64,000 nt of DNA from an uncultured Elusimicrobia bacterium (GTDB taxonomy: Bacteria > Elusimicrobiota > Elusimicrobia > 2-01-FULL-59-12). Positions 4,885 through 42,885 of this stretch are shown here, piece after piece (within the stretch, counting starts at the first letter, position 1; the number at the start of each line of letters is the position of its first letter). The DNA is taken from the NCBI GenBank assembly GCA_964506645.1, contig CAZDML010000001.1:12072-76071 (forward strand), read 5' to 3'. Below the pieces are notes generated by a model. That model saw nothing but the letters and a program-made list of their open reading frames with translations. It was not told the DNA's origin and searched no databases. Both the position numbers and the translations under genes were made by a program.

Positions 4885-5937
4885 ATGAAACGGTTCGCAT
4901 TAATTCTGGTGATGTCTTTGAGTCTTTGGAGTACGGTGTGGGCTCATGGGGTTAAAGATCCGGTGTGTCGGATGGAGGTCGATACACATGCAACGGCGTA
5001 TGAGGGAGAGTTTCAGGGGCAGACGTATTATTTCTGCTCCTCAGCCTGTCAAAAGCGGTTCGAAACAACGCCTCAACAGTACGTGAAAACACTGGCTGAT
5101 TTATCGAAGAGCCCGAAAGCGTACGAAGTTCAAATCAAAACATCTAAAGAGCCTCTGGCTGGAAAGCCGGCCTCAATGACATTTACGGTGGTTTCGGGTA
5201 CTGAAAAAGCGCCGGTGAAAACATTCGAAGTGGTTCACGAACAACTCATGCACCTGGTTATGGTCAGTGAGGATCTGAACTGGTTTACTCATGAACACCC
5301 AACGCCAAAACCCGATGGAACGTTCGATTTCAGTGGGACTTTTCCTAATGGTGGGCGCTACTATTTATATACCGACTTCACCCCGGCCGACGGGGATAAC
5401 CAACTGATTCAATCTATATTGGACGTAAGCGGCAAGAGGAAACAAAAAGTTGATCTTGTCTCTGACTCTTCCTTTGAAAGGGCTGTTGACGGATATCGAG
5501 TCAATCTGGCTGTAGACCCGACGCCGCTTCAAGTTGAGAAAGCAGCAACGCTGACGTACTCGATTCGTGATTCGAAAGGAAACCCCATAACGGATATGGA
5601 ACCTTATCTCGGGGCGATGGGCCACCTGTTTGCCGTTCACCAAGGAGGCGCCGAAGTTGTTCATACGCATGCAACCTCGAAAACCTCATCTGAGGAGCAC
5701 GACCACTCCACGCATACGTCTGCACAAGTGAAAGAGCGAACCGGGCCCGATTTTTCATTCAAGCTCACCTTGCCGAAAGAGGGGCTCTATAAAATCTGGG
5801 CGCAATTCAGTCGTCAAGGCAAAACCCTGACCGTGCCTTTTGTTCTGGAAGCAAAACCTCTTTGGGAAAAAGCGTCTGCCAAAACAGGGTGCAACTGTGG
5901 ATGTAAGGACTGTCAGAAAAAGCATGCCGAAAATTGA
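4885..5937 (+). CDS. exported YHS/TRASH-domain protein
   Basis: Signal peptide, then VKDPVCRMEVDTHATAYEGEFQGQTYYFCSSACQKRFETTPQQY, a YHS (CxM...YYFCS..C) metal-binding domain. C-terminal CNCGCKDCQKKH. Confidence 0.65.
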   Translation: MKRFALILVMSLSLWSTVWAHGVKDPVCRMEVDTHATAYEGEFQGQTYYFCSSACQKRFETTPQQYVKTLADLSKSPKAYEVQIKTSKEPLAGKPASMTFTVVSGTEKAPVKTFEVVHEQLMHLVMVSEDLNWFTHEHPTPKPDGTFDFSGTFPNGGRYYLYTDFTPADGDNQLIQSILDVSGKRKQKVDLVSDSSFERAVDGYRVNLAVDPTPLQVEKAATLTYSIRDSKGNPITDMEPYLGAMGHLFAVHQGGAEVVHTHATSKTSSEEHDHSTHTSAQVKERTGPDFSFKLTLPKEGLYKIWAQFSRQGKTLTVPFVLEAKPLWEKASAKTGCNCGCKDCQKKHAEN

Positions 5938-6370
5938 CCTGATCGAAATCCACATGGCCTCAGCCCATTTTCCCATCGGGCTTCTTATGTCCAGCGCGCT
6001 TTTTGACGTGTTGGGCAGGTGGCTCAAGAAACCCGAGTTACGAATTACATCCTATTGGATTCATCTATTCGGCGTCGCCGCCGGTATGGGGACGTTGCTT
6101 TTGGGACTCATCGGAAATCCGTTCTTAGAGGATACGGGGTGGATTCCGCTCTTCTGGAAAGATTATGGGAATCCCATGACAGACAAGATGGCTCGCCATG
6201 CCTGGACAGGCCTCTTGAGTCTCTTAATCTTCGCTTTGTCGGCTTTATGGAGAGTACGAAAGCATGATGAGTTCACGAACGGACAAGCCGTTGTCTATTG
6301 GGCTGTGACATTTGTCTCCGTCGGACTCCTTGGACTTGCGGGATATCTGGGCGCCCATGTGATGGATTAA
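5924..6370 (+). CDS. small integral membrane protein (4 TM, DUF2231-like), hypothetical
   Basis: Start MPKIDLIEIHMASAHFPIGLL. Four hydrophobic helices. Overlaps the upstream gene by 14 nt. Confidence 0.5.
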   Translation: MPKIDLIEIHMASAHFPIGLLMSSALFDVLGRWLKKPELRITSYWIHLFGVAAGMGTLLLGLIGNPFLEDTGWIPLFWKDYGNPMTDKMARHAWTGLLSLLIFALSALWRVRKHDEFTNGQAVVYWAVTFVSVGLLGLAGYLGAHVMD

Positions 6371-6942
6371 TGCCAAAGAATAATCTGCCCCTAAAGCCCA
6401 TAGATGATCGTGTCGCTAAAGTCTTGCTGAAAAGCCGGGATCGGTTCGAGCGGTTTCTCACTCAACGCCTGAGAGACCCGGAGATCGCTCGGGATCTGCT
6501 CCAGGAAAGCCTGGTCCGCGCGATCACGAAGTCCCGGGGTCTACGGGATTCCGACCGCCTTGTCCCTTGGTTTTTCCAGATCCTCCGAAATGCCTTGATC
6601 GACTATTACCGAAATCACGCCGCACGAGTACGACGCGATGAAGCCTTTCTTCGCAGCCTGGAGGAGACTGAAACTCGGAAGGCAGCCGGTCGTCGAATGC
6701 AAGAAGCAGTTTGTTCCTGTATGTCCGGACTGTTGCCCTCCTTGAAACCCGAGTATGGAGATCTCATCCAGAAGGTGGATCTCGAAGAACGTTCTGTAAC
6801 CGAAGTGGCCAGGGCGATGGATCTTAAGCCCAACAACGTGATGGTGAAACTTCACCGAGCGCGCCAAGCCCTCAAGAAAAGCCTTGAGCGTGCCTGTGGG
6901 TCCTGCGCGGAGCACGGTTGCCTGAATTGTTTCTGCCGCTAG
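6370..6942 (+). CDS. ECF sigma factor with C-terminal cysteine-rich extension (CorE-like metal-responsive ECF)
   Basis: Region 2 (FERFLTQRLRDPEIARDLLQESLVRA...WFFQILRNALIDYYR) and region 4 (ERSVTEVARAMDLKPNNVMVKLHRARQAL). CSC in the linker (AVCSCMSG) and the tail CGSCAEHGCLNCFCR. Confidence 0.7.
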   Translation: MPKNNLPLKPIDDRVAKVLLKSRDRFERFLTQRLRDPEIARDLLQESLVRAITKSRGLRDSDRLVPWFFQILRNALIDYYRNHAARVRRDEAFLRSLEETETRKAAGRRMQEAVCSCMSGLLPSLKPEYGDLIQKVDLEERSVTEVARAMDLKPNNVMVKLHRARQALKKSLERACGSCAEHGCLNCFCR

Positions 6943-7017
6943 TGTAAGGTTTGATCGGTCTGCTTCGTCTCCTAGGGTGTAAGGGCGATGCCCTTCCGCT
7001 ATAAAAAGGAGATATTT

Positions 7018-9411
7018 ATGAGCGAATCGTGCTGCAGTGTCAAAGAAAAAGAGCAGTCTTGCTGCAAAGGAAACCAGTCTGTTATGGATCACTCGCATCA
7101 CACTTTAGTCAAGCCGACGGTCAAGGACCCGGTTTGTGGAATGGATGTCCACCCGGATGATGCTGGCGGCGGCAGCTATTCCTATAAGAACCAGACTTTT
7201 TACTTTTGCAGCCCGAGCTGCCGTGAGAAGTTCAAGAAGCACCCGGTAAAGTACGTTGCCGAGTCAAGGCCTTCGGCACCCGCAACCTCGGATGCCGCAA
7301 TCTATACCTGTCCCATGCATCCGGAGGTCCGCCGGCAGGGCCCCGGCTCCTGTCCGATCTGTGGGATGGCGCTTGAGCCGGTAATCGTTACGGCAGAAGA
7401 GCAGCCAAACCACGAGCTCATCGATATGACACGGCGCTTTTGGACAAGCGCGGCTTTGTCAGCTCCGTTGTTTGTAATGGCCATGGCTGAGATGTTTATG
7501 GGGCAGGGTTCCAGTCATTTTTTCTCCAGTACATGGGCGAGTTGGATTCAGGTTGCCTTGGCAACGCCGGTTGTGTTGTGGGGCGGCCGGCCGTTTTTTG
7601 TTCGCGGTTGGGCTTCCATCGTGAACCGCAGCCCGAACATGTTTACCTTGATTGCGTTGGGGACCGGAGCGGCCTACCTTTATAGTCTCATAGCCATCTT
7701 GTTTCCCGGGTTGTTTCCGGAATCATTTCGAGGGCATGGCGGTCGGATCGGGCTTTATTTTGAGGCTGCTGCCGTCATCACAACCCTGGTGTTATTGGGG
7801 CAGGTGCTCGAACTGCGCGCTCGGCAACAGACTTCTGGCGCGATCAAAGCGCTTCTCGGCTTATCTCCCAAGACGGCGCGTCGCGTAAACCCCGATGGGT
7901 CGGAAGAAGAAATTTCGTTAGAACAGGTTCACGTCGGTGATATCCTGAGAATCCGTCCCGGCGAAAAGATCCCGGTCGATGGCGTCGTAACAGAAGGTTC
8001 GAGCTCCGTTGATGAATCCATGATCAGCGGCGAGCCCATCCCCGTAGAGAAGAAGGCCGGGGACCGAGTGACGGGCGCAACGATGAATGGGACGGGCAGT
8101 CTCCTGATGCGAGCCGAACGCGTAGGTCAGGAAACGCTCCTGGCACAAATCGTCCAAATGGTCAGCCAGGCGCAGCGAAGCCGCGCGCCCATCCAGAGGC
8201 TCGTCGATGTTGTTTCTTCCTATTTTGTACTGGTTGTGCTCGCGGTGGCTGTTCTTACCTTCGTTGTCTGGGCTCTATGGGGTCCTGAGCCGAGGATGGC
8301 ACACGCCCTCGTTAATGCCGTGGCAGTCCTTATCATCGCCTGTCCTTGCGCTCTGGGCCTAGCCACTCCAATGTCGATCATGGTCGGTACCGGCAAGGGT
8401 GCCACCGCCGGTGTCTTGATCAAAAACGCCGAGGCGCTCGAGATCATGGCCAAGGTCGATACACTTGTGGTGGATAAGACCGGAACACTGACCGAGGGCA
8501 AGCCTCGCCTCACCACCATCGTTCCGCTCGAACCGTGGTCAGAAACCGATTTCTTGCGACTTGCGGCCAGCGTTGAACAAGCCAGTGAGCATCCGCTAGC
8601 CGCCGCGATTGTTCAAGGAGCACAGCAGAAAGAAATTGTTCTTTCCAAAGCGAGCCGTTTTGAATCGGTGACTGGAAAAGGAGTCCGAGGTGTCGTGGAA
8701 GGCAAGGTTGTGACCATGGGGAACGCCAAATTCGTCGGCGATTGGAGCGGCTCCGCTGAAACACTCCGGAATAAAGCTGAAGAATTCAGACGCGAAGGCC
8801 AAACGGTCATATTCGTAACAGTGGACGAAAAGCCGGCAGGAATTTTAGGCGTCTCTGATCCGATCAAGACAACGACGCCGGAAGCCATTCGGCAACTTCA
8901 CGCTGAAGGAATTCGCGTTGTCATGCTGACCGGCGACAATAAGACAACAGCCGAGGCGGTCGCAAAGAAGTTATCGATTGATGAGGTGGAGGCGGACGTC
9001 CTGCCCGATCAAAAAGGCGAAAAAGTGAAGAAGTTTCAAGCCGCCGGCCACATTGTGGCGATGGCGGGAGACGGCATCAACGACGCGCCGGCACTCGCAC
9101 AGGCGCAGGTAGGAATCGCCATGGGAACCGGGACAGACGTGGCCATGGAAAGCGCAGGCGTGACGCTCGTCAAAGGCGACCTTCGCGGCATCGCGAAGGC
9201 GCTACGTCTTAGCCGCGCCACCATGCGAAACATTCGGCAAAACCTGTTCTTCGCATTCATCTACAACGTCCTTGGCATTCCCATAGCGGCGGGTGTTCTC
9301 TACCCCTTCTTTGGCTTGCTTTTGAGTCCGATGATCGCCAGCGCCGCGATGAGTTTGAGTTCCGTTTCAGTGATTGCGAATGCTCTTCGACTTCGGAAAG
9401 TAGCGCTTTGA
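7018..9411 (+). CDS. copA: copper-translocating P1B-type ATPase with N-terminal YHS/TRASH metal-binding domain
   Basis: AAGGAG RBS 7 nt before ATG 7018. YHS ([10 protein letters not shown]...[12 protein letters not shown]), [27 protein letters not shown]...GIP..AG and M..SS Cu(I) signature motifs. Confidence 0.9.
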
Positions 9412-9807: not shown

Positions 9808-11058
9808 ATGAATCGATTTATTGCTTTGCTATTTCTGTTCGTTTTAAGCGCTCCCACTGTTCACGCGGAAAGCGCGACATATACATTGGCCGACCTTGTG
9901 GTGCGGGCAAAACGCAACGCTCCGCTGGTCGCCGCACAACAGTCTCGTGTCGAAGAAAAACGGCTTTCCGCTATTCAGGCGCGGACCTGGCCCGGTCTGT
10001 CTATAGACGTTGCCGGTGGGCAACGCAAACAAGGTGAGGAATCGGGGCCCCGATTCGAAGCCGCCATCCGGCAACTTTTGCCGCTTTTAGGAAAAGAACG
10101 ATTAGGCGGCGCCTTGCTCGGGCTGGAATCAGAGCTCTGGCAGCGGCGCGTGTCGCTTTCCGAGGCCGCGCTTACACAGCAGGTGATCCAGTTGGCCTAC
10201 GACTATACAACCGATAAGCGTAAGGCCGATTTCACACAGGACCGCCGCAAGCGTTTTGAGTTGCTGGAAGCTTACATGGCAGGACGGGTGTTCGCTTCGC
10301 CGCAACGTAAAACAGAGATTCGTATTGTTCGCAACCGTCTAAATAATCTGAAGGCGGATGCCATACAGACCGCGGCCGATAAGAAAGCCGCCTTCGAAGC
10401 TTTGCAGGTTTTCGTGCCATTGGATGCCCCCGGTGAACCTGCTATTGAAACGCCATGGCTAAAAGGAACGTCTCCACTCCTTGCGGAACCGTTACTGGCT
10501 AAGGCCAACGAGCGAAACGCCGATCTTCTTGCTCAGAAATCCGCAGTGGAAGCGTCTCAAATCGAACAAACTCTGGCCCGGAGAAACCGGTGGCCGGATC
10601 CTTCTTTGATTGTCTCCTACGATCAGGCCAAGGCGGCCGATACGGAAAAGAATTACGGACTTGGCCTTGGGCTAGCGCTTCCAGCTTGGAACGGAAATCG
10701 CGCCGCGATCAAGAGCTTGGAGATAAGGAAAACAGCGGAAGAACGGCTTCTCGCGTACCAGAAGCAGCAGGTCTCCGCTGAGCTGGCTAGGGCGCTGAAC
10801 GCCTATGAAGCCGCCAGGCAGAAGGTCCAGACATACTCCCCGAAAACCATCGAAGAGTTATCCGCCCAACTTCAAGAGACCGAAGCAGGATTTCGCAAAG
10901 GCCAGGTGGATCTATTGACGTTCCTCGAGTTGGATGGATCGGCGGCAGATTTATTTGCGCAGGTTGTTGATGCGCAGTTGGCGCTCGTCAGCGCTTTGAA
11001 CGAAATATGGCGTTTGAGTGGTGAGCAGAATGTGCTCGATCAGCTCGGATCTTATTAG
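9808..11058 (+). CDS. outer-membrane efflux factor (TolC/CzcC family)
   Basis: Signal peptide MNRFIALLFLFVLSAPTVHA. Two coiled-coil repeats. N-terminal LADLVVRAKRNAPLVAAQQSRVEE... is typical of OMF proteins. Sits 9 nt upstream of the RND gene. Confidence 0.8.
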   Translation: MNRFIALLFLFVLSAPTVHAESATYTLADLVVRAKRNAPLVAAQQSRVEEKRLSAIQARTWPGLSIDVAGGQRKQGEESGPRFEAAIRQLLPLLGKERLGGALLGLESELWQRRVSLSEAALTQQVIQLAYDYTTDKRKADFTQDRRKRFELLEAYMAGRVFASPQRKTEIRIVRNRLNNLKADAIQTAADKKAAFEALQVFVPLDAPGEPAIETPWLKGTSPLLAEPLLAKANERNADLLAQKSAVEASQIEQTLARRNRWPDPSLIVSYDQAKAADTEKNYGLGLGLALPAWNGNRAAIKSLEIRKTAEERLLAYQKQQVSAELARALNAYEAARQKVQTYSPKTIEELSAQLQETEAGFRKGQVDLLTFLELDGSAADLFAQVVDAQLALVSALNEIWRLSGEQNVLDQLGSY

Positions 11059-11067
11059 GAGACCTTT

Positions 11068-14000
11068 ATGAACCGATTAATGCAGTGGACGCTGAAAAAC
11101 CGACTCACCGTCATTCTCTTTTTCGCACTGGCCTCAGGCCTTGGCTTTTATTCCATGGGCCATCTCGCGATTGATGCAGTTCCCGAGATCACGCCGGTGC
11201 AGGTCATGGTCAATACGAAAACAGGGGCGCTGGATCCGGAGCAGATTGAAAAGACCGTTACGTTCCCGATTGAGACGGACATGAGCGGTATTGCGCATGT
11301 CAAAGAAGTTCGGTCGCTTTCTAAATACGGATTGTCCCAGGTCATTGTCATCTTCATGGACGGCACAGATATTTACTGGGCCAGACAGCAAATCTCTGAA
11401 CGGTTGCAAGGCATCCGCGGCGAAATCCCGGACGGTCTCACGCCAACACTCGCCCCGATTTCAACGGGCTTAAGCGAAATCGTCATGTATACCCTGCTTC
11501 CTAAGAAAGGGACTGACTTAGCGGCAAAACCCGAAAAAGATCGCTTACTCTATCTTCGGACGCTGCAGGATTTTGTCGTTGCCCCCTACCTCAAACGATC
11601 CGTGAAAAATGTCGCCGAAGTCGACACCACCGGCGGATTCAAGAAAGAAATCCATATCGAAATTCACCCCGAACGACTAGACGACTACGGTCTAAGCATG
11701 GAGCAAGTCGCAGAACGACTTGAAGGGCTTGGGGAGAACGTCGGCGGAGGCTACATTCAACCCAAGGGCCGTCAAATCATTGTCCGCGCGTCGGGCCGGT
11801 TGATGAACTTAGATGAAATACGCAACCTTCCGGTGAAGCTGGATGTCGGTGGGCGAGCGGTTCCGCTATCGCGGATCGCAGATGTGCGGGACGATTATAC
11901 GCCGCGCATGGGCGGCGCGACGGTCGATGGGGAAGAAGCGGTACTTGGAACGGTCTTGATGCTATCGGGCGCCAACTCTCGGGAAGTGTCGCTGGATGCC
12001 GAGGCCGCTTTAAAAGAGGCTCCTTTGCCCGAGGATGTGGAAATCCAGCTCCTTTATACGCGAAGTTTTCTCGTCAATGCGACGCTCAAAACGGTATCTA
12101 AGAGTCTCTTGGAAGGCGCGGCGCTTGTGATCGTGGTTCTGCTCCTGATTCTAGGGAACGTCCGCGCGGCGCTCCTGGTCTCTCTGGCCATTCCGCTTTC
12201 GATGCTATTCGGAGCGATCGGAATGAAGTGGTTCGGCCTCTCCGCCAGCCTCATGAGCCTCGGAGCTATCGACTTCGGCCTCTTGGTGGATGGCGCTGTC
12301 GTCATGATTGAGAACTCGCTTCGCCGCTTGGAAGAGCATCGCGGGGCACTAACGAAAGAAGCCAAGCTTGCGTTGATTTTGGATGCCGCTCAAGAAGTGG
12401 TCAAGCCGGTGACGTTGGGCTTGGCCATCATCATGCTGGTCTATGTTCCCATTCTTTCCTTAGAAGGTATCGAAGGAAAGCTATATCACCCCATGGCGAT
12501 GACCGTCATTATGGCGCTCGGCGCATCGCTCTTGGTCGCGGTGCTCTTAATGCCCGTAGTGGCCTATCTCTACCTTAAAGCTCCGTCGTCCGGCCATGTC
12601 CAGGAGACGCGATTCTTTCTGCTCTTGAAGAAGGTGTATACCCCGGTGTTGGATTGGGGCTTGCGCCACCGGGCGTTGACCGTCACGCCGACGGTGCTTT
12701 TGTTTATCGGCGCATTATGGGTATTTCACAGGATGGGGGCCGATTTTATGCCGCCTTTGGATGAAGGCGATTTAGTCGTCAATCTGACTCGGGCCTCCGA
12801 TATCGGTGTTGACGCATCGCTTGCCATGCAGCGAACGAGCGACCGCATTTTGGCCGAATTCCCGGAAGTGGAGCGAGTGTTTTCTCGGATCGGAACACCT
12901 GAGTCGGCGACGGATCCCATGGGAGTCCATTTATCCGATACCTTCGTGATGCTGAAAAAAGATCGATCCGCTTGGCCGGTTGCACCGGACGGCAAAAAAA
13001 GAACGAAAGCCGATCTTTATGAAGCGATGAAAAAGGCTCTCGAGGAAAAGACGCCGGAACAAGAGGTCAATGAGAATCAGCCGATCGAAATGCGCTTCAG
13101 CGAAATTCTCGAAGGCAGCCGTGCCGATGTGACGCTGCGAATTTACGGCAAGGACCTGGATACGTTGATCGGTCTTTTGAACCAGTCCATCGACGTTTTG
13201 AAAGAGATTCCTGGCGTTGATGAGGTGGAAATGGATGCTCTGACGGCATTGCGGAAAAGCCCGGTTCTGACCGCGCGGCCCAATTACGCGGCCATTGCAC
13301 GATACGGCCTCGACATTCACCGCGTGACCCGGCTCTTGGAAGTCGCCATGGGCGGTAAAGAAGTTGGCAGCTTTTATGAAGAGCAATGGCGTTTTCCAAT
13401 TGTGATGCGCGTCGAAGAGGAACATCGTGAAAACATCGACACGATTAAATCGCTCCCGGTAGGATTACCTGACGGTGGAACAATTCCATTGAAGGATGTG
13501 GTGGACTTCAAGCTGCAGGATGAGGTCACTACGATCGCGCATGATTATTCTCAACGCTATGCAGCGATTGCCATATTTCTAAAAGGGCGCGATATCAGCA
13601 GTTTTGTAAAGGACGCCCGCGAAGCCATTGATGCCAAGTTGAAAGTTCCGGATGGTTACCGAATCAGTTGGGGCGGCCAATTTAAAAATCTTGAACGTGC
13701 GAAGCGTCGACTAGCACTCATTGTGCCGGTCATTCTCATTGCCATCTTCTTGATTCTATGGAAAGCCTTCGGCGTCATGCGCCAGGCAGTTCTTGTCTTC
13801 ACGACAATTCCGCTGGCGATGACGGGCGGTATTTTTGCTTTGGCGCTGCGCGACATCCCAATGAGCGTATCGGCTTCTGTCGGTTTCATTGCCCTAATGG
13901 GTATCGCGATCTTAAATGGCATGGTGCTCGTCACATTCTTCAATCAACTACGGCAAAAGGGAATGGATGCCACCCAGTCAGCTCGTGAAGGAGCGCTTGT

Positions 14001-14220
14001 TCGTTTGAGGCCTGTGGCCATGACGGCGCTTGTCGCTAGCCTGGGGTTTGTGCCGATGGCGCTGAATACAGGTATCGGCGCCGAAGTCCAGCGGCCGCTC
14101 GCAACGGTCGTGATCGGAGGATTGATCACCTCGACTTTGCTGACGCTGGTCGTCCTTCCGGTGGTTTATCCGTGGCTCGGAAAGAAGTGGAAAGAGGAAG
14201 AAGAGGAGGTCGAGTTATGA
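11068..14220 (+). CDS. heavy-metal efflux RND inner-membrane pump (CzcA/CusA family)
   Basis: 1050 aa, 12-TM RND architecture. N-terminal MNRLMQWTLKNRLTVILFFALASGLGFY...AIDAVPEITPVQVMV aligns with CusA/CzcA. Confidence 0.9.
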   Translation: MNRLMQWTLKNRLTVILFFALASGLGFYSMGHLAIDAVPEITPVQVMVNTKTGALDPEQIEKTVTFPIETDMSGIAHVKEVRSLSKYGLSQVIVIFMDGTDIYWARQQISERLQGIRGEIPDGLTPTLAPISTGLSEIVMYTLLPKKGTDLAAKPEKDRLLYLRTLQDFVVAPYLKRSVKNVAEVDTTGGFKKEIHIEIHPERLDDYGLSMEQVAERLEGLGENVGGGYIQPKGRQIIVRASGRLMNLDEIRNLPVKLDVGGRAVPLSRIADVRDDYTPRMGGATVDGEEAVLGTVLMLSGANSREVSLDAEAALKEAPLPEDVEIQLLYTRSFLVNATLKTVSKSLLEGAALVIVVLLLILGNVRAALLVSLAIPLSMLFGAIGMKWFGLSASLMSLGAIDFGLLVDGAVVMIENSLRRLEEHRGALTKEAKLALILDAAQEVVKPVTLGLAIIMLVYVPILSLEGIEGKLYHPMAMTVIMALGASLLVAVLLMPVVAYLYLKAPSSGHVQETRFFLLLKKVYTPVLDWGLRHRALTVTPTVLLFIGALWVFHRMGADFMPPLDEGDLVVNLTRASDIGVDASLAMQRTSDRILAEFPEVERVFSRIGTPESATDPMGVHLSDTFVMLKKDRSAWPVAPDGKKRTKADLYEAMKKALEEKTPEQEVNENQPIEMRFSEILEGSRADVTLRIYGKDLDTLIGLLNQSIDVLKEIPGVDEVEMDALTALRKSPVLTARPNYAAIARYGLDIHRVTRLLEVAMGGKEVGSFYEEQWRFPIVMRVEEEHRENIDTIKSLPVGLPDGGTIPLKDVVDFKLQDEVTTIAHDYSQRYAAIAIFLKGRDISSFVKDAREAIDAKLKVPDGYRISWGGQFKNLERAKRRLALIVPVILIAIFLILWKAFGVMRQAVLVFTTIPLAMTGGIFALALRDIPMSVSASVGFIALMGIAILNGMVLVTFFNQLRQKGMDATQSAREGALVRLRPVAMTALVASLGFVPMALNTGIGAEVQRPLATVVIGGLITSTLLTLVVLPVVYPWLGKKWKEEEEEVEL

Positions 14221-14546
14221 AAGAGATCAAAGCGATCATTCAGCCCCAAGTGCTGGATCAGGTATTAGAGGCCCTCCACGCCGTGCCCGGCATCCCCGGC
14301 TGCACGGTATCCCGTGTTGAAGGCTATGCGCGGAGTTCCAACAAGGAAGGAGATGGACGTATGGCCACGTCAGCCGAGCGAGTGAAACTTGAGTTGGTCG
14401 TTCCAGATAAAATGGTCGAGAAAATAGTTGGGCTGATTCATGTCAATGCCAAAACGGGACACAAAGGAGACGGCAAGATTTTCATCATCGAAACAAAAGA
14501 TGCGCTGGCCATTCGCACCGGTGAGCGAGGCGAAAAGGCACTATAG
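14217..14546 (+). CDS. PII-like protein of the PII-NG group (GlnB fold, no T-loop Tyr)
   Basis: MKEIKAIIQPQVLDQVLEAL...GDGKIFIIETKDALAIRTGERG matches the PII fold. ATGA overlap with the RND stop. Confidence 0.75.
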   Translation: MKEIKAIIQPQVLDQVLEALHAVPGIPGCTVSRVEGYARSSNKEGDGRMATSAERVKLELVVPDKMVEKIVGLIHVNAKTGHKGDGKIFIIETKDALAIRTGERGEKAL

Positions 14547-15016: not shown

Positions 15017-15121
15017 GACAGGGATCATTTCCGAGCGCACCAATCTCCAAGTCCCATAAATGAATTGACCGCCGGGAAAATTCTGTTTACAGATGTTTGA
15101 ACAGTAGGTAAACTTATCTTA

Positions 15122-15538
15122 ATGTTCAGGTCTTCAAAATTGATCCTCTTCGTTATGTGTGCCTGGCTTGCTGGCTGGTCCGGCATTACCATCGGAGGAA
15201 TCCATGACGAGCAGCACCGGCTGAAGCATCAGGTTACCGCGGTTACCGATCACTCACACGGTGACCATCGAGGCTCTCATTCCCATGATCAGGGAGATCC
15301 GAAACATGTCCCGCTCCCATTTGATTCATTCGTTGGTCTCACGCCGGCGGTTTCATCGGTCAGTGGAGTTGCTCAGGGAATTTCGCACCCCGTGTCGGTT
15401 GAAATCATCTACGCGGGCGCTGAACTTCTCGTGCATACTAAATCAGTTTCATCCATAAGCCCGCAGGGCCCCCCTGTCCCTGTTGATGATTCCTGCTTTC
15501 CCTCCTTTTCCAACCTCGCCCCACCTCTCCTAGCGTAA
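15122..15538 (+). CDS. small His-rich exported/membrane protein (hypothetical metal-binding)
   Basis: Hydrophobic N-terminus, then HDEQHRLKHQVTAVTDHSHGDHRGSHSHDQGDPKH. Confidence 0.45.
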   Translation: MFRSSKLILFVMCAWLAGWSGITIGGIHDEQHRLKHQVTAVTDHSHGDHRGSHSHDQGDPKHVPLPFDSFVGLTPAVSSVSGVAQGISHPVSVEIIYAGAELLVHTKSVSSISPQGPPVPVDDSCFPSFSNLAPPLLA

Positions 15539-15605
15539 TCCAGCCGTTCCGACGTTTCGTTCGTAATCATCCAATTATTTATTAAGCGGTTTTTCAGGTG
15601 CTCTC

Positions 15606-18600
15606 ATGCTGAATGCAGTTATTCGATTTTCTCTACGTTATCGCGCCGCCGTCCTGCTGGCGGCGACGGGTCTCCTCATCTATGGTTTCGCTGTTTGGCG
15701 AAATCTGCCCGTTGACGTCTTCCCAGACCTTAATCGGCCAACGGTCACCGTTTTGACGGAAGCCCACGGTCTGGCACCGGAGGAAGTTGAGACTCTGGTC
15801 ACGCTACCGATTGAATCGGTCTTAAACGGCACGCCTGGCGTCATCCGCGTCCGTTCCTCGAGCGGAATCGGCATCTCGATCCTTTATGTCGAGTTTGAGT
15901 GGGGGACCGACATCTTTCGCAACCGCCAACTCGTGTCGGAACGTTTGCAGCTGGCCAAGGAGCGCCTGCCGGATGAAATGACGCCTGTAATGGGGCCGAT
16001 CACCTCTATCATGGGTGAAATCCAGTTTGTCGGCATGACCTCGCCCGAAGGAACCATCTCCCGCATGGATTTGCGTACGATCGCCGATTGGCAGCTGCGC
16101 CCACGACTGATGTCTATTCCCGGCATCAGCCAAGTCGTTGTCATGGGCGGAGAAGTGAAGCAATACCAAATTCTGATCAATAGCGACGCTTTGCAGCGGC
16201 GCGGGATTTCCCTGGACAACTTAAAGCACGCACTCTCGCACTTGAGCGAGAACACCACGGGCGGCTTTATCGATGTCGACGACAAAGAGCTGCTGATTCG
16301 GCCGCTCGGACGACTTGAGTCCGTGGAGGACATACGTAACGCTTCGGTGGGCATGCATCTTGGAAAACCTGTCCTCGTTAAGGAGGTTGCCGAAGTGCGG
16401 ATCAGCGCCAAAACCAAGCGCGGAGAGGCCAGCGTGAACGCGCGTCACGCGGTGGTGATGACGATTCAGAAACAACCGAACGCCGACACCATCAATCTGA
16501 CCCGGCGGATTGATGAGACGTTGGCAGAGATGCAGAAAACTCTGCCGGCAGGCGTCGAGATCCTGAGCGATCTCTTCAAACAATCTCGCTTCATCGAGGC
16601 CGCTAATCACAACGTGATCGCGGCGTTGCGGGACGGCGCGATTATCGTCAGCATTATCCTTTTCCTGTTTTTAGCGAACGTCCGAACCACCGCCATCACA
16701 CTGATTACGATTCCCTTGTCGCTCATGGTCACGGCGATCGTTTTTCACGCGATGGGATTAGGCATCAACACGATGACCCTCGGAGGGCTGGCGGTGGCCA
16801 TCGGCGAACTGGTGGACGATGCCATTGTGGATGTCGAGAATGTATTCCGCCGTCTGCGTGAGAACCGCCTCGCCGGATCGCCGAAAGGGATCTTGCGCGT
16901 GGTCTTTGAGGCATCCTCCGAAGTACGCAACTCCATCATTATTTCGACGCTCATCGTAGTCCTGGTATTTATTCCGCTCTTTTTCCTGAGCGGTATCGAA
17001 GGACGTCTTTTTGCTCCGCTGGGGGTCGCCTATCTGGTTGCGCTTAGCGCCTCACTCGTCATATCCCTGACTGTTACGCCGGCTCTATGCTCTCTGCTCC
17101 TCGGCAAATCGAAAACGATTGAACGAGAAGAAGAAAGCTGGCTTGTCCGCCGACTCAAAGTGCTCCACCGCCGAGGTCTGGCGATCACGCTGGACCATCC
17201 TTACTTTATTCTCGGTGGCTCTTTTGCACTCCTTGTAGGTTCGCTTTGCCTTTTGCCTCTCATGGGAAAGACCTTCCTGCCTCCCTTTAATGAAGGCACC
17301 GCGACTATTGGGATAGCAGCGCCTCCCGGGATTTCATTAGCCGCCTCCGATGAGCTGGGTCGGAAGGCCGAAGAGGCGATGCTGTCCATCCCAGAGGTGA
17401 AGTCCACCATTCGCCGCACGGGGCGAGCGGAGATGGACGAGCATGCCGAAGGGGTTCACTGGAGCGAAGTCGATGTGGACTTCAAACCTTCAGGACGCCC
17501 CCGCCGGGTTGTGCTTCAGGAACTGCGCGAGAAAATTGAAAAGGTCGGCGACGTATATGTGAACGTGGGGCAACCGATCAGCCATCGGTTGGACCATATG
17601 CTCTCGGGTGTTCGCGCTCAAGTGGCGATTAAAATCTTCGGTCCGGACCTCTCCGAGCTTCGTCGATTGGCCACCCAGACGGAAACGATTCTGAAAGGTA
17701 TTCGGGGCGTCGTTGATCTTGCAGTCGAACCGCTCGTTCTCATCCCACAGCTCAAAATCGCCATGGACCATGAAGCGGCGGCGCGGGTGGGCCTGCGTTC
17801 CGGTGCGCTGGCGGAAGACCTTGAGATGGCCCTCAACGGCGAGGCCGTCTCCCAGATTCTCGAAAAGCAACGAATCTTCGATTTGTTCATGCGCCTGGAT
17901 GATCGTTCCAGGCAATCGCCGGAAGCCATCGAGAAGGTCCTGGTTAAAACACTACCGAACGGGCAAGGCGTGCGAGTGGAAGATGTGGCCAACGTCTACC
18001 AAGGCACAGGACCCAACATGGTCAATCGCGAGGATCTGCAGCGCCGAATCGTCGTATCCGCCAACGCGCATGGCCGCGACCTTGGAAGCCTCGTGGATGA
18101 GATTCGATCCAAGCTGGATGCCGGTGTAAAGTTCCCCACGGGATATTTTGTGAACCTGGGGGGACAGTTTGAGAGTCGGCGGGAAGCATCCAGAAAATTG
18201 TTGCTCTTCGGATTTTTGTCGCTTGCGGCAATCGTACTGGTGCTATACATGCATTTCCGGTCACTCGTCCTCGTGCTCCAAATCATGTTGAACGTGCCGC
18301 TGGCTTTAATAGGCAGCATCGTGGCCATTTATCTCACTGAGCGTGAGCTCTCAGTCGCCACATTGATCGCTTTCATAACGCTATGCGGCATCAGCAGCCG
18401 CAACGGCATCATGATGATCAGCCATTACATCCATCTCATGGTAGAGGAAGACGAGTCTTTCAGCCGCGACATGGTGATACGCGGCTCGCTTGAACGTTTA
18501 GTGCCGGTTCTCATGACGGCGCTCACCGCTGCTTTGGCGCTGGTACCGCTCGTTCTATCCAAGGGGGAGCCGGGCAAAGAAATCCTCTATCCGGTGGCGG

Positions 18601-18746
18601 TCGTCATTATCGGCGGTTTATTTTCTTCGACGCTGCTCGATATCGCCGTGACGCCGGCGATCTTTTACCTTTTCGGACGCAAACCCGCAGAGCGCCTGGT
18701 CGCTTTGCGGAAAGAATCCAAAACAACACAAGGAGAATGGAAATGA
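15606..18746 (+). CDS. heavy-metal efflux RND inner-membrane pump, second copy (CusA/CzcA family)
   Basis: 1046 aa. MLNAVIRFSLRYRAAVLLAATGLLIYGFAVWRNLPVDVFPDLNRPTVTV... has the CusA-like signature. Confidence 0.9.
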   Translation: MLNAVIRFSLRYRAAVLLAATGLLIYGFAVWRNLPVDVFPDLNRPTVTVLTEAHGLAPEEVETLVTLPIESVLNGTPGVIRVRSSSGIGISILYVEFEWGTDIFRNRQLVSERLQLAKERLPDEMTPVMGPITSIMGEIQFVGMTSPEGTISRMDLRTIADWQLRPRLMSIPGISQVVVMGGEVKQYQILINSDALQRRGISLDNLKHALSHLSENTTGGFIDVDDKELLIRPLGRLESVEDIRNASVGMHLGKPVLVKEVAEVRISAKTKRGEASVNARHAVVMTIQKQPNADTINLTRRIDETLAEMQKTLPAGVEILSDLFKQSRFIEAANHNVIAALRDGAIIVSIILFLFLANVRTTAITLITIPLSLMVTAIVFHAMGLGINTMTLGGLAVAIGELVDDAIVDVENVFRRLRENRLAGSPKGILRVVFEASSEVRNSIIISTLIVVLVFIPLFFLSGIEGRLFAPLGVAYLVALSASLVISLTVTPALCSLLLGKSKTIEREEESWLVRRLKVLHRRGLAITLDHPYFILGGSFALLVGSLCLLPLMGKTFLPPFNEGTATIGIAAPPGISLAASDELGRKAEEAMLSIPEVKSTIRRTGRAEMDEHAEGVHWSEVDVDFKPSGRPRRVVLQELREKIEKVGDVYVNVGQPISHRLDHMLSGVRAQVAIKIFGPDLSELRRLATQTETILKGIRGVVDLAVEPLVLIPQLKIAMDHEAAARVGLRSGALAEDLEMALNGEAVSQILEKQRIFDLFMRLDDRSRQSPEAIEKVLVKTLPNGQGVRVEDVANVYQGTGPNMVNREDLQRRIVVSANAHGRDLGSLVDEIRSKLDAGVKFPTGYFVNLGGQFESRREASRKLLLFGFLSLAAIVLVLYMHFRSLVLVLQIMLNVPLALIGSIVAIYLTERELSVATLIAFITLCGISSRNGIMMISHYIHLMVEEDESFSRDMVIRGSLERLVPVLMTALTAALALVPLVLSKGEPGKEILYPVAVVIIGGLFSSTLLDIAVTPAIFYLFGRKPAERLVALRKESKTTQGEWK

Positions 18747-19189
18747 AACAGCTAATACTCATAGGAAGTCTCTTGCTGGCGACGCTCAGCTTTGCCCATG
18801 ACGAAGGGCACGGTCCAAAACTGACGGATTCGCCGAAGCAGGGCGGCGTCGTTGCGCCGGTCATCGACGCGAAAGAAGCGAAGCTCGGGGCTAAAGCCAC
18901 GTTGCTTTACAAAGCCGAACTCGTGCGTCTGGATGACGGCACCGTCCGGGTTTATCTCTACGATCAAGCGATGAATCCGTTGTCGCTTGAGGCCTTGAAT
19001 CCGACTGCTCAGGGAGTTCTTGAAACGTGGAAAAAGAAGACAGCCACGCGAAAACCATTTGAGCTCAAGAAGGAATCGGACGCATTTGTAGGACAAGCAC
19101 CGAAGGCGACCGCCAAACCCTTCAACATCGACGTCACGTTCCAGGAAAAGGGCCGAAAATTGTTGGCGGCTTTCGACAACCTTGACTAA
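18743..19189 (+). CDS. small periplasmic protein in the 'adaptor' position between RND and OMF (hypothetical)
   Basis: AAGGAG plus 7 nt to ATG 18743. Signal peptide MKQLILIGSLLLATLSFA. Starts HDEGHGPK. 148 aa, too short for a canonical membrane-fusion protein. Confidence 0.5.
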   Translation: MKQLILIGSLLLATLSFAHDEGHGPKLTDSPKQGGVVAPVIDAKEAKLGAKATLLYKAELVRLDDGTVRVYLYDQAMNPLSLEALNPTAQGVLETWKKKTATRKPFELKKESDAFVGQAPKATAKPFNIDVTFQEKGRKLLAAFDNLD

Positions 19190-20435
19190 ACAGCCCCTCA
19201 GCATCGTAGTCGCTCTGTTCTTAGGCGTCAGTACGGCGCTTCGGGCGGATGAGCTCAGGCTCACCGCTGAAAATCTGCCGCAGATGGTGAGGGAGCGACA
19301 TCCGGCGCTGAAAGCTTCAGAGCGCTTGGTGCAGGCCGCAAAAATGCGGACCGGCTTCTGGCGACGATCCATGAATCCGCATTTGAACGTGACGTTGGGC
19401 GGCGAACGCTATGAAACCGGTCCGTATGCCGCGGAGACGCAGCCCTATGCGTTGGGCGAGGCAGCCATCAACGTGTTTCGAGGCGGCAAGGATCGTCTGG
19501 AAGATGTCCAGCGGCAAGCCTACGTGAAAATCGCCGAAGCCGAACATGAAACGCTTTTCCGTGAAGAGCTGGAGAAGGTTCGCCGCTTCTACTGGCAGTT
19601 CGTCGCCGAGCAAGAGCGGATGGTCCACATTGATGCGCTGTTGGAACAGGGAAAGCGCATTCGCCAGGCCGCGGAGCGGCGTGTCGCCAAAGGACTGACA
19701 ACCGATACGGACGTCCTGGCGGTTGATCTCTACAACCAGCAACTGGAGGAAGAAAAGAAGAGCTCCCTCAATGAAATGAGACTGAGTCATATTGCGCTTC
19801 AAGCCCCATTGAACATCTCTTCGGGAACCGTGATAACAACAGAAGGTCGCATCCCACATGAGCGTGTTGAAAATGCCCAACGGAACAATGCGGATATCCC
19901 GTCGGTGGTTCGCCTTCAGGCGCAGCGGGAAATCAATGAAAGCCAGCGGGCCCAATGGTCGCGCTGGTGGGCTCCGGAACTTGATTTCTATGGTCAGTAC
20001 GGGCTTTACACAAGACGTGACCGAGATTTTTCGCAGCGGAGTGATCGGGTCGATTGGGCGGCGGGCTTGCGCGCCCGGTTTTCTCTCTTCGATGGAGGAA
20101 ATTCCCTACAGGAAGCCAAATCCTCCAAGCAGCAGGCGGCGGCGTACGGCGAACTCGCCGCTTATCGTGAACGCGCATTCGACGCGGATGTGGAAACAGC
20201 TCTTCAGAAGATGCGGAATCTGGACGATCTCATTCATGGATCTGAGATATTCCTCGAGCGCGGGGAAAAGCTCCTACGGCAAACCTTAAGCGAATACGAC
20301 CGCGGTGTGCGGGACTCCCAAGAGGTTCTGGCCGCCTTAGATCGGCTGGCCGTTTTCCAACGCCGGCATCTCGAACGCCGGTTGGAGTATCAGAACACCA
20401 AAACTCACTGGCAGGCACTTACAGGAGGGCAATAA
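19182..20435 (+). CDS. outer-membrane efflux factor (TolC family), second copy
   Basis: Signal peptide. Two-repeat coiled-coil organisation typical of OMF. Overlaps the upstream stop. Confidence 0.75.
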   Translation: MTKQPLSIVVALFLGVSTALRADELRLTAENLPQMVRERHPALKASERLVQAAKMRTGFWRRSMNPHLNVTLGGERYETGPYAAETQPYALGEAAINVFRGGKDRLEDVQRQAYVKIAEAEHETLFREELEKVRRFYWQFVAEQERMVHIDALLEQGKRIRQAAERRVAKGLTTDTDVLAVDLYNQQLEEEKKSSLNEMRLSHIALQAPLNISSGTVITTEGRIPHERVENAQRNNADIPSVVRLQAQREINESQRAQWSRWWAPELDFYGQYGLYTRRDRDFSQRSDRVDWAAGLRARFSLFDGGNSLQEAKSSKQQAAAYGELAAYRERAFDADVETALQKMRNLDDLIHGSEIFLERGEKLLRQTLSEYDRGVRDSQEVLAALDRLAVFQRRHLERRLEYQNTKTHWQALTGGQ

Positions 20436-20481
20436 TCATGTTGATGGTCATTAAAGTTGAAAGCGGGTGGGCGTGGCGAGC

Positions 20482-21843
20482 ATGAAGGCGATTATCCTCG
20501 CAGCAGGGAACGGAGAACGCTTTCGAAAAGTCGGCATACAGACGCCGAAACCCCTCCTGCGCCTCGGGGGATTGAGTCTGCTGGAACGGACCGTACGAAC
20601 GGCTGTGAAGGCCGGCGCGAGCGAGGTATTGATCGTCGTGGGATCCGAAGCGGAGACCATTCAATCTGCTCTAGCCCCGAGGCTCTCCGGACTCAATATC
20701 CGCTGGATCATTAACGACCAGTGGCGATCCGGCAACGGGACGTCGGTTCTGGCAGCGGCCCCCTTCCTGAATAGGGAACCCGCCCTCATCCTCATGGCGG
20801 ATCATCTTGTGTTCGCTCCGACGTTGCGCCGCTTATGGGAAGCGGCAGCCCGGATAGACACTTCCGTCATGGCAGTCGACTTCAAACTTTCGTTGTTGTC
20901 TGATCCGGACGATGCCACAAAGGTTCAGGTCGACCTTGATCACATCACAGCCGTCGACAAGGCACTCTCTCATTTCAACGCTTATGACACCGGGATGTCC
21001 GTCTGTACGGCAGTCTATTTCGACCGGCTGGCGGAAATCGCGCGACGACAGAAAGGCATTTGTTCGCACAGCGACGGGATGCGAAGCCTGGCGGCGTCTC
21101 GACTTTTAATGGCCTGGGATATTGGCTCGGACCGCTGGGAGGATGTCGATACTCCCGCTGCATACAAGGCTGCGGAAACGATTCTCATGAACTCCCTTAG
21201 AAAATCTACGGACGGGTTTATGTCGAAGCATCTCGAGCGTCGGCTCTCGGGATGGGTCACGCAGCGCTTGATTCATACGCCCGTGACGCCGAATCAAATG
21301 ACGCTGCTTGTCGTTGCCATCGGCTTGGGGGCGGCATGTCTTTTTTCACAGCCCGGGTATTGGGCGAAGGTCGCCGGAGCGCTTGTTTTCTGGTGTGCCT
21401 CCTTTCTAGACGGCTGTGATGGTGAGATTGCACGACTCAAATTCATGGAATCCCGCCTTGGAGGGTGGTTGGACCTCTGGGCCGACAACGTGGTCCATAT
21501 GGCGGTCTTTGCAGGTCTAGGTATCGGGCTTTGGCGCGACACCCAAAGCGTTCACTGGCTTTGGCTCGGGTTTATAGCGGCGCTGGGTGTACTGATGTCT
21601 GTCGGCTTTGTTTCCTGGAACACGCTACGAAAGAAAAAGGAGGGCGGACCTCTTTTTACCTCAGTCTCTAATAGGACGGATCGCCTAAGTCGGCTGGCGG
21701 ACGCGCTAAGTCGTCGTGATTTTATTTTCGGAACCATATTTCTTGCTTTCCTTGAATGGCTGCCCGAATTCCTATGGGCCGCAGCGATCGGCTCCCATGC
21801 CTACTGGATCGTCCTGATTGCTGTTGCGATGAGACCTCGATGA
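20482..21843 (+). CDS. bifunctional nucleotidyltransferase / CDP-alcohol phosphatidyltransferase (IPCT/DIPPS-like)
   Basis: N-terminal MKAIILAAGNGERF NTP-transferase fold. C-terminal multi-TM domain with DGCDGEIARLKFMESRLGGWLDLWAD, i.e. D-x2-D-G-x2-A-R-x8-G-x3-D-x3-D. Confidence 0.7.
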   Translation: MKAIILAAGNGERFRKVGIQTPKPLLRLGGLSLLERTVRTAVKAGASEVLIVVGSEAETIQSALAPRLSGLNIRWIINDQWRSGNGTSVLAAAPFLNREPALILMADHLVFAPTLRRLWEAAARIDTSVMAVDFKLSLLSDPDDATKVQVDLDHITAVDKALSHFNAYDTGMSVCTAVYFDRLAEIARRQKGICSHSDGMRSLAASRLLMAWDIGSDRWEDVDTPAAYKAAETILMNSLRKSTDGFMSKHLERRLSGWVTQRLIHTPVTPNQMTLLVVAIGLGAACLFSQPGYWAKVAGALVFWCASFLDGCDGEIARLKFMESRLGGWLDLWADNVVHMAVFAGLGIGLWRDTQSVHWLWLGFIAALGVLMSVGFVSWNTLRKKKEGGPLFTSVSNRTDRLSRLADALSRRDFIFGTIFLAFLEWLPEFLWAAAIGSHAYWIVLIAVAMRPR

Positions 21844-21859
21844 ATTTAATCCTAATCGC

Positions 21860-42243: not shown

Positions 42244-42885
42244 ATGAAGCGGTTTGGTCTCACAGTCGAGGTGTTAGGGTTGTTCGGCACCTTGATTTTT
42301 TATGTATCGCCGGCGATGGCGGAAATGCCTGAGATCTCAGGCAGCAGCGCCTCGTCCGCCGTCTCGGCCGTTGCCTCCGATAGCGCAACGGTCGTTGAAC
42401 CTTTTCTGTGGCCATTGTCCCCGATGATTGGGGGAAAAAAGACGATGGTGTTGTCCGGTTTTGGAAAGCGCCAAGTGCCACAAAACCTCTGGCCACTACC
42501 GACAGCCAAAGGCCCCGTCTTTACCGGGGTGGAAGATCATAAAGCAGTCGATTTTATCGCCGCCGAAAGCGCAGTCGTACGGGCGTCCCGGGCAGGAAAA
42601 GTTCTTTTTATTGGGTTTTCCAAAGAGTACGTGAGTCGTAAGGATAAAAATGATAAGTGGCGGGCGGTGATTATCCGTCACGCCGATGGCATGAGCACGC
42701 GGTACGTGCACTTAAATGCGGTGCACGTAGCGCCCGGTCAACAGGTCACTGCAGGGCAGGTGATTGGACGTGTGGCATCGTCCGATGAATGGACCGACCC
42801 GGTGTTTCATTTTGAGATTCGAGATGCAAAGGGAGTGGCGCTAAATCCTATGGATCTTTTACAAGTCGAAGGAGCACATCCGTAA
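42244..42885 (+). CDS. M23-family peptidase domain protein, possibly degenerate active site
   Basis: HKAVDF (HxxxD) is present, but the HxH motif reads FHFE. Signal peptide. Confidence 0.65.
   Translation: MKRFGLTVEVLGLFGTLIFYVSPAMAEMPEISGSSASSAVSAVASDSATVVEPFLWPLSPMIGGKKTMVLSGFGKRQVPQNLWPLPTAKGPVFTGVEDHKAVDFIAAESAVVRASRAGKVLFIGFSKEYVSRKDKNDKWRAVIIRHADGMSTRYVHLNAVHVAPGQQVTAGQVIGRVASSDEWTDPVFHFEIRDAKGVALNPMDLLQVEGAHP

Follow-up and report, generated by a model that had tools for sequence, protein, structure and literature searches.

The analysed DNA (hereafter the window) is a 64,000-nt stretch of contig CAZDML010000001.1 (GenBank assembly GCA_964506645.1, positions 12,072–76,071, forward strand) from an uncultured Elusimicrobia bacterium. 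Between 9.4 and 15.0 kb it carries a gene group best explained as an efflux operon (system 1; Table 1), encoding a Cys-rich periplasmic protein, an outer-membrane factor (OMF1), a CzcA-type resistance-nodulation-division (RND) pump of the heavy-metal efflux (HME) class (pump 1), a PII protein and a periplasmic oligonucleotide/oligosaccharide-binding (OB)-fold protein. No gene for a periplasmic adaptor, or membrane-fusion protein (MFP), accompanies the channel and the pump. To our knowledge, RND–OMF efflux pumps are invariably regarded as needing this adaptor as their third component. Whether RND pumps touch the outer-membrane channel directly has been disputed for two decades, with adaptor-bridging models set against deep interpenetration and the hairpin-less adaptor BesA as the single awkward case.

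The OMF1 stop and the pump 1 start are separated by 9 nt (11059–11067) that hold a GGAG ribosome-binding site. The PII start codon overlaps the stop codon of pump 1 as ATGA, coupling the two genes translationally. No gene of system 1 is disrupted, and ribosome-binding sites and coupled starts are in place. The original prediction, made from the DNA alone, had placed an OMF gene 9 nt ahead of a CzcA/CusA-like pump gene, with no room for an adaptor gene and with an ATGA-coupled PII-fold gene behind the pump. These coordinates hold exactly, the coupling is confirmed at 14217–14220, and beside pump 1 there is neither space for an adaptor gene nor a frameshifted adaptor remnant. A profile of OMF1 and its orthologues matches VceC (4e-11, residues 26–375), TolC, SilC, OprJ and CusC over nearly their full length, while the single OMF1 sequence alone gave no PDB match.

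Absence of an adaptor extends across the window. Pfam annotation of 30 window proteins (everything from 2.5 to 25.5 kb) contained no HlyD-type family, and in-house CzcB/CusB-type profiles, run with HMMER filters off, found no adaptor in any window open reading frame (ORF) of at least 60 aa, all scores being noise (E > 0.05). The profiles were built from adaptors in the related loci described below and detect the pump-adjacent adaptor in ~60 control loci. One weak match, at 42244–42885, was rejected as a peptidase M23. Small ORFs were likewise rejected as cryptic adaptors, since their profile scores are noise and their models are an OB fold and an immunoglobulin (Ig)-like sandwich: the 142-aa protein of system 1 has the OB fold, the 150-aa protein of a second system the beta-sandwich, and the 85-aa protein matches no adaptor profile. 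An OMF is thus encoded with both pumps of the window and a cognate adaptor in cis with neither.

Pump 1 scores 1089 bits against TIGR00914 (CusA/CzcA; cut-off 701). Its closest solved structure is ZneA (1.4e-170, residues 3–1038), with CusA at 1e-151 (residues 7–1036). It has full porter and docking domains without reduction, and compared with CzcA pumps that depend on an adaptor it shows no indel exceeding 3 aa. It is a true member of the CzcA/CusA family of HME-RND pumps and falls among canonical tripartite systems, which rules out a non-tripartite RND family. Given the results for the small ORFs, for frameshifts and for the pump family, neither a hidden adaptor nor a non-tripartite pump, the two explanations that the original prediction had set against its own, accounts for the layout. 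The fourth transmembrane helix (TM4) carries AIDFGLLVDGAVVMIEN, in agreement with DFG-DGA-VEN, the charged motif of divalent-cation pumps that Nies is said to have described in 2003, and the CusA methionine triad is absent. This CzcA-type motif, the lack of the triad and the proximity to ZneA suggest that the substrate of pump 1 is likely a divalent cation (Zn/Co/Cd-type).

Genomic contexts were examined by exact look-up and by retrieving 80 genome loci through a pump alignment; the related loci cover 5–10 kb on each side of the pump gene, and most are metagenome-assembled genomes (MAGs). The closest homologues of pump 1 come mostly from Elusimicrobiota (66–98% identity), with Nitrospirae, Rokubacteria, Lindowbacteria and Spirochaetes more distant. 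In 17/17 closest loci examined, from at least four phyla, the OMF gene abuts the pump gene and no adaptor is present; these are listed as L001–L013, L026, L089 and L090, and L001/L002 and L003/L004 are the same sequences, leaving 15 distinct loci. The OMF stop ranges from 25 nt within the pump gene to 19 nt ahead of its start (15 pump entries with both ends scored, the window included). Precomputed Pfam annotation of the adaptor-less contigs contains no HlyD family, and no adaptor-profile match was found in the loci. At four of them (L026, L011, L013 and L012), OMF and pump form isolated two-gene operons between genes on the opposite strand, so no conserved third partner is encoded in cis. The adaptor-less layout is therefore a conserved feature of this clade across several phyla.

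Verrucomicrobial relatives preserve what appear to be intermediates. Fourteen of their pumps have a short protein between OMF and pump, and all of these short proteins are detected by a profile of 56 full-length adaptors from other phyla (E 1e-10 to 8e-30). Against the CzcB/CusB profile they align in two blocks, CusB residues ~1–117 and 243–403. With CusB domain boundaries that are said to follow Su and colleagues (2009), we take these blocks to be the N-terminus, the beta-barrel and the membrane-proximal domain, and residues ~118–242 to be the lipoyl and alpha-helical domains that reach the OMF. The latter are absent from the short Verrucomicrobial adaptors, and two proteins of ~150 aa (L022 and L050) consist of the membrane-proximal block alone. 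A neighbour-joining tree of 97 pumps unites the adaptor-less and Verrucomicrobial clades in one group nested among full-adaptor pumps, and the Verrucomicrobial sister clade holds the reduced-adaptor pumps as well as an adaptor-less subclade. The simplest history suggested by these sequences is that a common ancestor lost the OMF-reaching domains and that what remained of the adaptor then disappeared on at least two occasions. No Pfam family matches the reduced adaptors, which would therefore be labelled hypothetical in routine annotation, and systems that carry them escape standard efflux-pump censuses.

A second HME-RND system without an adaptor gene (system 2) lies ~1 kb further 3', with OMF2 placed 3' of pump 2 across a 150-aa gene. 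Pump 2 has AIGELVDDAIVDVEN in TM4, deviating from DFG-DGA-VEN, and has no methionine triad; His residues occupy the positions equivalent to CusA 617 and 672. The four-gene layout recurs in three other genomes, Bdellovibrio sp. GT3 (L087), the complete Elusimicrobiota genome CP096137 (L088) and an Oligoflexia MAG (L091), whose precomputed Pfam annotation contains no HlyD family. Exact-sequence look-up returned no record of the window PII gene or of P0121, a protein identical to pump 2. Among the fetched loci, the nearest relatives of pump 2 are Verrucomicrobial second pumps that keep full adaptors of 391–530 aa, which argues that the loss in system 2 was separate from that in system 1; the two appear to be independent events. 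Since both layouts recur in other phyla, adaptor loss is real and evolved.

Table 1. Genes of the two efflux systems in the window and layouts at related loci
Feature or group	Position (nt) or loci	Strand	Description
System 1: small secreted Cys-rich protein, 85 aa	9468..9725	+	ATG 9468; mechanical ORF from TTG 9408
System 1: OMF1, CzcC/TolC family, 416 aa	9808..11058	+	Signal peptide; ATG 9808; mechanical ORF from TTG 9772; PF02321 3e-18
System 1: pump 1, CzcA-type HME-RND inner-membrane pump, 1050 aa	11068..14220	+	ATG 11068, TGA 14220; TIGR00914
System 1: PII-family protein, 109 aa	14217..14546	+	PF00543 1e-20; ATG 14217
System 1: secreted Cys-rich OB-fold protein, 142 aa	14588..15016	+	AlphaFold2 (AF2) model and Foldseek
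System 2: small His-rich membrane/secreted protein, 138 aa	15122..15538	+	First gene of system 2; no family match (Pfam, NCBIfam)
System 2: pump 2, HME-RND, 1046 aa	15606..18746	+	TIGR00914 777 bits (cut-off 701)
System 2: secreted beta-sandwich protein, 150 aa	18737..19189	+	10-nt overlap with pump 2; 8-nt overlap with OMF2
System 2: OMF2, 417 aa	19182..20435	+	PF02321 6.8e-28; TolC-family NCBIfam match
Closest relatives of pump 1	Elusimicrobiota L001–4, L006, L007, L089; Nitrospirae L005; Lindowbacteria L090		OMF abuts pump, no adaptor
Closest relatives of pump 1	Leptospira and other Spirochaetes L008–11, L013, L026		OMF abuts pump, no adaptor; includes cultured L. yanagawae ATCC 700523
Closest relatives of pump 1	L012, MAG labelled Proteobacteria		OMF abuts pump, no adaptor
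Verrucomicrobial relatives	14 pumps		Short 150–318-aa protein between OMF and pump
Verrucomicrobial relatives	L024, L029, L030, L039, L055		No short protein; OMF abuts pump
Reduced adaptors	L014–L025, L045, e.g. L014 9195–9992, L022 9531–9986		Beta-barrel and membrane-proximal, 230–318 aa, or membrane-proximal, ~150 aa
More distant CzcA pumps (~40–44% identity)	Bradyrhizobium, Pirellula, Myxococcota, others		OMF, full adaptor (310–614 aa), pump
Bradyrhizobium-type PIIs	L040 1583–1954; L054 9640–10005; L062 9621–10001		No canonical signature

From this evolutionary argument we infer, tentatively and with slightly less than even confidence, that system 1 is a two-component RND–OMF pump whose parts dock directly. 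The adaptor lineage would first have shed its OMF-reaching domains (alpha-hairpin and lipoyl) and then vanished, in the order full adaptor, beta-barrel plus membrane-proximal domain, membrane-proximal domain only, none. Bridging to the OMF is beyond an adaptor that has neither hairpin nor lipoyl domain, and direct RND–OMF contact would thus already be implied in the intermediates. The docking domain of the RND trimer and the periplasmic end of the OMF trimer would meet without a hexameric adaptor sleeve between them, and loss of the adaptor remnant would complete the transition. A broader picture is possible but is put forward more cautiously: a natural adaptor-free RND–OMF machine that arose at least twice within HME-RND by stepwise adaptor loss, with a PII trimer as cytoplasmic regulator of the RND pump.

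Several points weigh against direct docking. Neither pump nor OMF has clade-specific indels of more than 3 residues relative to adaptor-dependent relatives; the sole clade-specific indel of the pump is a 3-residue RKS insertion (residues 729–731) inside an invariant TALRKSP motif. Conservation of the docking subdomain is not raised in the adaptor-less clade, and conservation of the TM, porter and docking regions, compared among adaptor-less, reduced-adaptor and full-adaptor groups with subdomain boundaries that we presume to follow CusA, showed no informative shift. The sequences thus offer no direct signature of a new interface, and this is the main weakness of the proposal. Most of the loci, moreover, are MAGs, and the pump tree is a simple distance tree. 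We know of no experimentally studied HME-RND system that does not need its adaptor (CzcB, CusB), and our adaptor searches cover the 64-kb window and the related loci, so an adaptor encoded elsewhere is compatible with the data. The pump would then belong to a normal tripartite system borrowing an adaptor from another site in the genome, as AcrD of Escherichia coli borrows AcrA. AcrD is likewise an RND gene without an accompanying adaptor gene, but it also has no adjacent OMF gene and uses both AcrA and TolC in trans, whereas here the OMF stays in cis, tightly coupled, and the adaptor alone is missing in all 17 close relatives from at least four phyla. HME adaptors are, as a rule, system-specific, and none was found across 64 kb although the window carries two pumps. 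The cis adaptors of the sister clade have lost precisely the domains that contact the OMF, which is hard to square with a full adaptor acting in trans. Leptospira genomes hold a few acrA genes or lineages beside at least 14 acrB loci (PMC4956267), which fits borrowing and is also what widespread adaptor-independence would predict. On balance, we regard a borrowed adaptor as unlikely, though the leading alternative.

A non-homologous periplasmic protein might instead replace the adaptor. The 85-aa Cys-rich, 142-aa OB-fold and 150-aa beta-sandwich proteins are the candidates, as small secreted proteins are conserved beside the pumps in the nearest relatives and translational coupling ties the 150-aa gene to pump 2 on one side and to OMF2 on the other. 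For system 1, however, the isolated operons that comprise OMF and pump only mean that no accessory protein is universal. The candidates show no profile similarity to adaptor domains, and an OB fold and an Ig/fibronectin type III (FN3)-like sandwich with Cys-/His-rich motifs look like metal chaperones of the CusF/CopC kind, not bridging proteins, which makes replacement improbable. Somewhat more doubtful still is that the RND pump works alone, from cytoplasm or inner membrane to periplasm, with the OMF independent or vestigial. RND families that work without an OMF do exist (HpnN, MmpL, SecDF), but pump 1 is a bona fide CzcA with complete porter and docking domains, and the tight coupling of OMF and pump genes kept across phyla argues that selection maintains the OMF along with the pump. 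Finally, a fault confined to one genome (misassembly, deletion or pseudogenisation of the operon) is hardly credible as the cause of the missing adaptor, even though the window belongs to a metagenome-type assembly: the genes are intact, and the same layout recurs in separately assembled genomes from many samples as well as in a Leptospira isolate grown in culture. Assembly artefact was excluded on these comparative data.

Among characterised systems, CzcCBA of Cupriavidus metallidurans and ZneCAB are the closest to system 1, sharing the CzcA-type TM4 motif, the structural proximity to ZneA, a CzcC/TolC-family OMF and a small protein at the CzcI position; they differ in that here no CzcB/ZneB gene is present, the OMF abuts the pump and a PII gene is coupled to it. 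Adaptor reduction in published systems goes furthest in BesABC of Borrelia burgdorferi, a spirochaete like some members of the adaptor-less clade. Direct RND–OMF contact has been argued for BesABC with its hairpin-less BesA (PMC3807786; PMC4446572), and the 2015 adaptor review calls BesA the biggest challenge to tip-to-tip models (PMC4446572). BesA nevertheless keeps the lipoyl, beta-barrel and membrane-proximal domains, whereas the Verrucomicrobial sister clade is missing the lipoyl domain as well and the window clade lacks any adaptor; BesB, in addition, is a multidrug-type RND, not HME. A 2026 review mentions no adaptor-free system (PMC13328181), and we found no description of an adaptor-less RND–OMF system in the searchable part of the literature; an earlier description elsewhere is possible. 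Separately, at three loci (L074 9998–14287, L075 9998–14344 and L079 9998–14338, two of them labelled Bacteroidota), an RND pump and an OMF lie in one uninterrupted frame of 1429–1448 aa, with a signal-peptide-like segment at the junction and an adaptor gene downstream. These frames look like RND–OMF fusions.

What appears to be new here is the adaptor-less layout with preserved intermediates; the linkage of PII to the pump was already known, and the function proposed for the layout is our interpretation. The original prediction had reported neither the second adaptor-less system nor the clade-wide layout with its reduction series, nor the B-loop that the PII protein keeps. A multi-phylum CzcA clade that keeps the channel and sheds the adaptor provides natural material for the direct-docking question, because the sister-clade intermediates keep only the pump-proximal adaptor domains. 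If the proposal is correct, direct RND–OMF docking would be sufficient for transenvelope efflux. Both systems have a host in culture, system 1 in Leptospira yanagawae and system 2 in Bdellovibrio sp. GT3, making the docking question experimentally approachable.

The PII protein falls well below the equivalog cut-offs for GlnB/GlnK (73.8 vs 202 bits and 62.5 vs 181 bits). Its T-loop is ~4 residues shorter than in solved GlnB proteins and contains neither an equivalent of Tyr51 nor a Y-[KR]-G-[AS]-[AE]-Y motif; alignment to the solved proteins thus bears out the earlier statement that the T-loop tyrosine is missing. The B-loop TGHKGDGKIF(I), which fits a PS00638-type pattern, and a C-terminal RTGE are kept. 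PII-NG proteins are reportedly defined, by Sant'Anna and colleagues in 2009, by the absence of both canonical PROSITE PII signatures; in the window protein the T-loop signature is absent and the B-loop signature present. Its identity to E. coli GlnB is 45%, against only ~31% to the pump-linked PIIs of the Bradyrhizobium type, in which neither signature is present. Pump-linked PIIs therefore appear, from their sequences, to comprise two lineages, a downstream GlnB-like type that keeps the B-loop and a Bradyrhizobium type located between adaptor and pump.

Linkage of PII to heavy-metal RND pumps, which the original prediction had stated for PII-NG, is published and takes here the form of the ATGA overlap with pump 1. 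A distinct PII group linked to czc genes, with Geobacter GSU2134–2137 as an example, is attributed to Sant'Anna et al. 2009 in PMC7726332. Compared with the PII-NG proteins of czc operons, the window protein has the same PII fold beside a CzcA-type pump and the same lack of a T-loop uridylylation motif, but it keeps the B-loop signature and its gene sits 3' instead of 5' of the pump. Across our loci, the PII gene adjoins the pump gene in 8/8 loci having one, with or without an adaptor: it lies 3' of the pump in the window and at L006, L069, L076 and L089, and between adaptor and pump at L040, L054 and L062. The pump is its only constant neighbour, which suggests that the RND pump is the likely partner and target of pump-linked PII. 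This strict adjacency, whatever the adaptor status, narrows the search for that target to the RND pump.

GlnK and SbtB are PII proteins that plug the trimeric transporters AmtB and SbtA of the same operon. By analogy with them, the most likely place for a PII trimer is the cytoplasmic side of the RND trimer, where its binding would depend on nucleotide and would gate or tune efflux by adenylate status, as GlnK does on AmtB. The likeness is that of a small PII trimer co-transcribed with a trimeric membrane transporter; here, however, the presumed partner is an RND antiporter, and the T-loop differs and is shorter. As a separate observation, a gene for a CBS-pair protein (13221–13664) directly follows the adaptor-less OMF–pump pair of L012, at the position of the window PII, which hints that a small adenylate-sensing module after the pump may be a recurring solution.

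The remaining genes of both systems encode small proteins. The 85-aa protein of system 1, at a CzcI-like position 5' of OMF1, has a signal-peptide-like N-terminus, a ribosome-binding site and a C-terminal F-x-R-PP motif. Homologues occupy the equivalent position at L089 (3e-55), in Lindowbacteria (L090, 2e-10) and at L001 (3e-5), and no Pfam, NCBIfam or adaptor-profile match was found. The 142-aa protein was modelled with AF2 at a mean predicted local distance difference test (pLDDT) score of 70, rising to 86–92 in the core blocks (residues 61–120), and its top Foldseek matches are all OB folds, periplasmic YgiW among them. It has just 13 homologues in 5.8 billion proteins and is also encoded 3' of the pump in L001 and L089. 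One homologue (P0363) starts with PII-like MKEIKAVIQPF, as if a PII remnant had been fused to it.

In system 2, the 150-aa protein belongs to a family of 121 representative clusters in which H21 and H25 hardly vary and the C-terminus carries a conserved FDNLD. Its AF2 model is a confident beta-sandwich (pLDDT 92) with no PDB relative (best E 5.6e-3, TM ≤0.42, Ig/FN3-like), and its adaptor-profile score is noise (E = 5.9). The predicted mature N-terminus starts with His (HDEGHGPK), which recalls N-terminal His metal sites and is only a lead; the protein is possibly a periplasmic metal chaperone. Like CusF, and resembling CopC- and YgiW-type proteins, the 142-aa and 150-aa proteins are small, secreted, rich in candidate metal-ligand residues and encoded inside efflux operons; they differ from CusF and CopC in having no sequence or close structural relationship to them. 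At the position of the 138-aa gene, L087, L088 and L091 encode proteins of similar composition with no detectable homology. The first genes of both systems, in the window and at L001 (6313–6609), L090 (3410–3670) and L087 (5464–5910), share a signal/TM segment, a Cys-/His-rich stretch and a C-terminal F-x-(R/H)-PP-like motif. Detectable homology between those of systems 1 and 2 is little or none, and their position is reminiscent of CzcI.

The surroundings form a metal-resistance island with a YHS protein, an extracytoplasmic function (ECF) sigma factor, a P1B-ATPase (YHS + HMBD), a cation diffusion facilitator (CDF) transporter and a two-component system. A promoter and terminator scan of 6.9–22 kb gave nothing beyond shuffle expectation. 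Directly 5' of the pump operon (4885–9411) lie genes for a 350-aa YHS-domain protein, a DUF2231 membrane protein, the ECF sigma factor and the P1B-ATPase, in which YHS and HMBD are N-terminal. Between OMF2 and the CDF transporter, the gene at 20467–21843 encodes an NTP-transferase fused to a CDP-alcohol phosphatidyltransferase domain, a bifunctional IPCT/DIPPS-type architecture. In the 98%-identical relative L089 (11362–12700), the PII gene, a 165-aa gene and the OB-fold gene are followed almost directly by a CDF–methyltransferase pair. System 2 and the gene at 20467–21843 thus look like an insertion in the window (15100–21850) or a deletion in L089, which carries an integrase ~4 kb further on.

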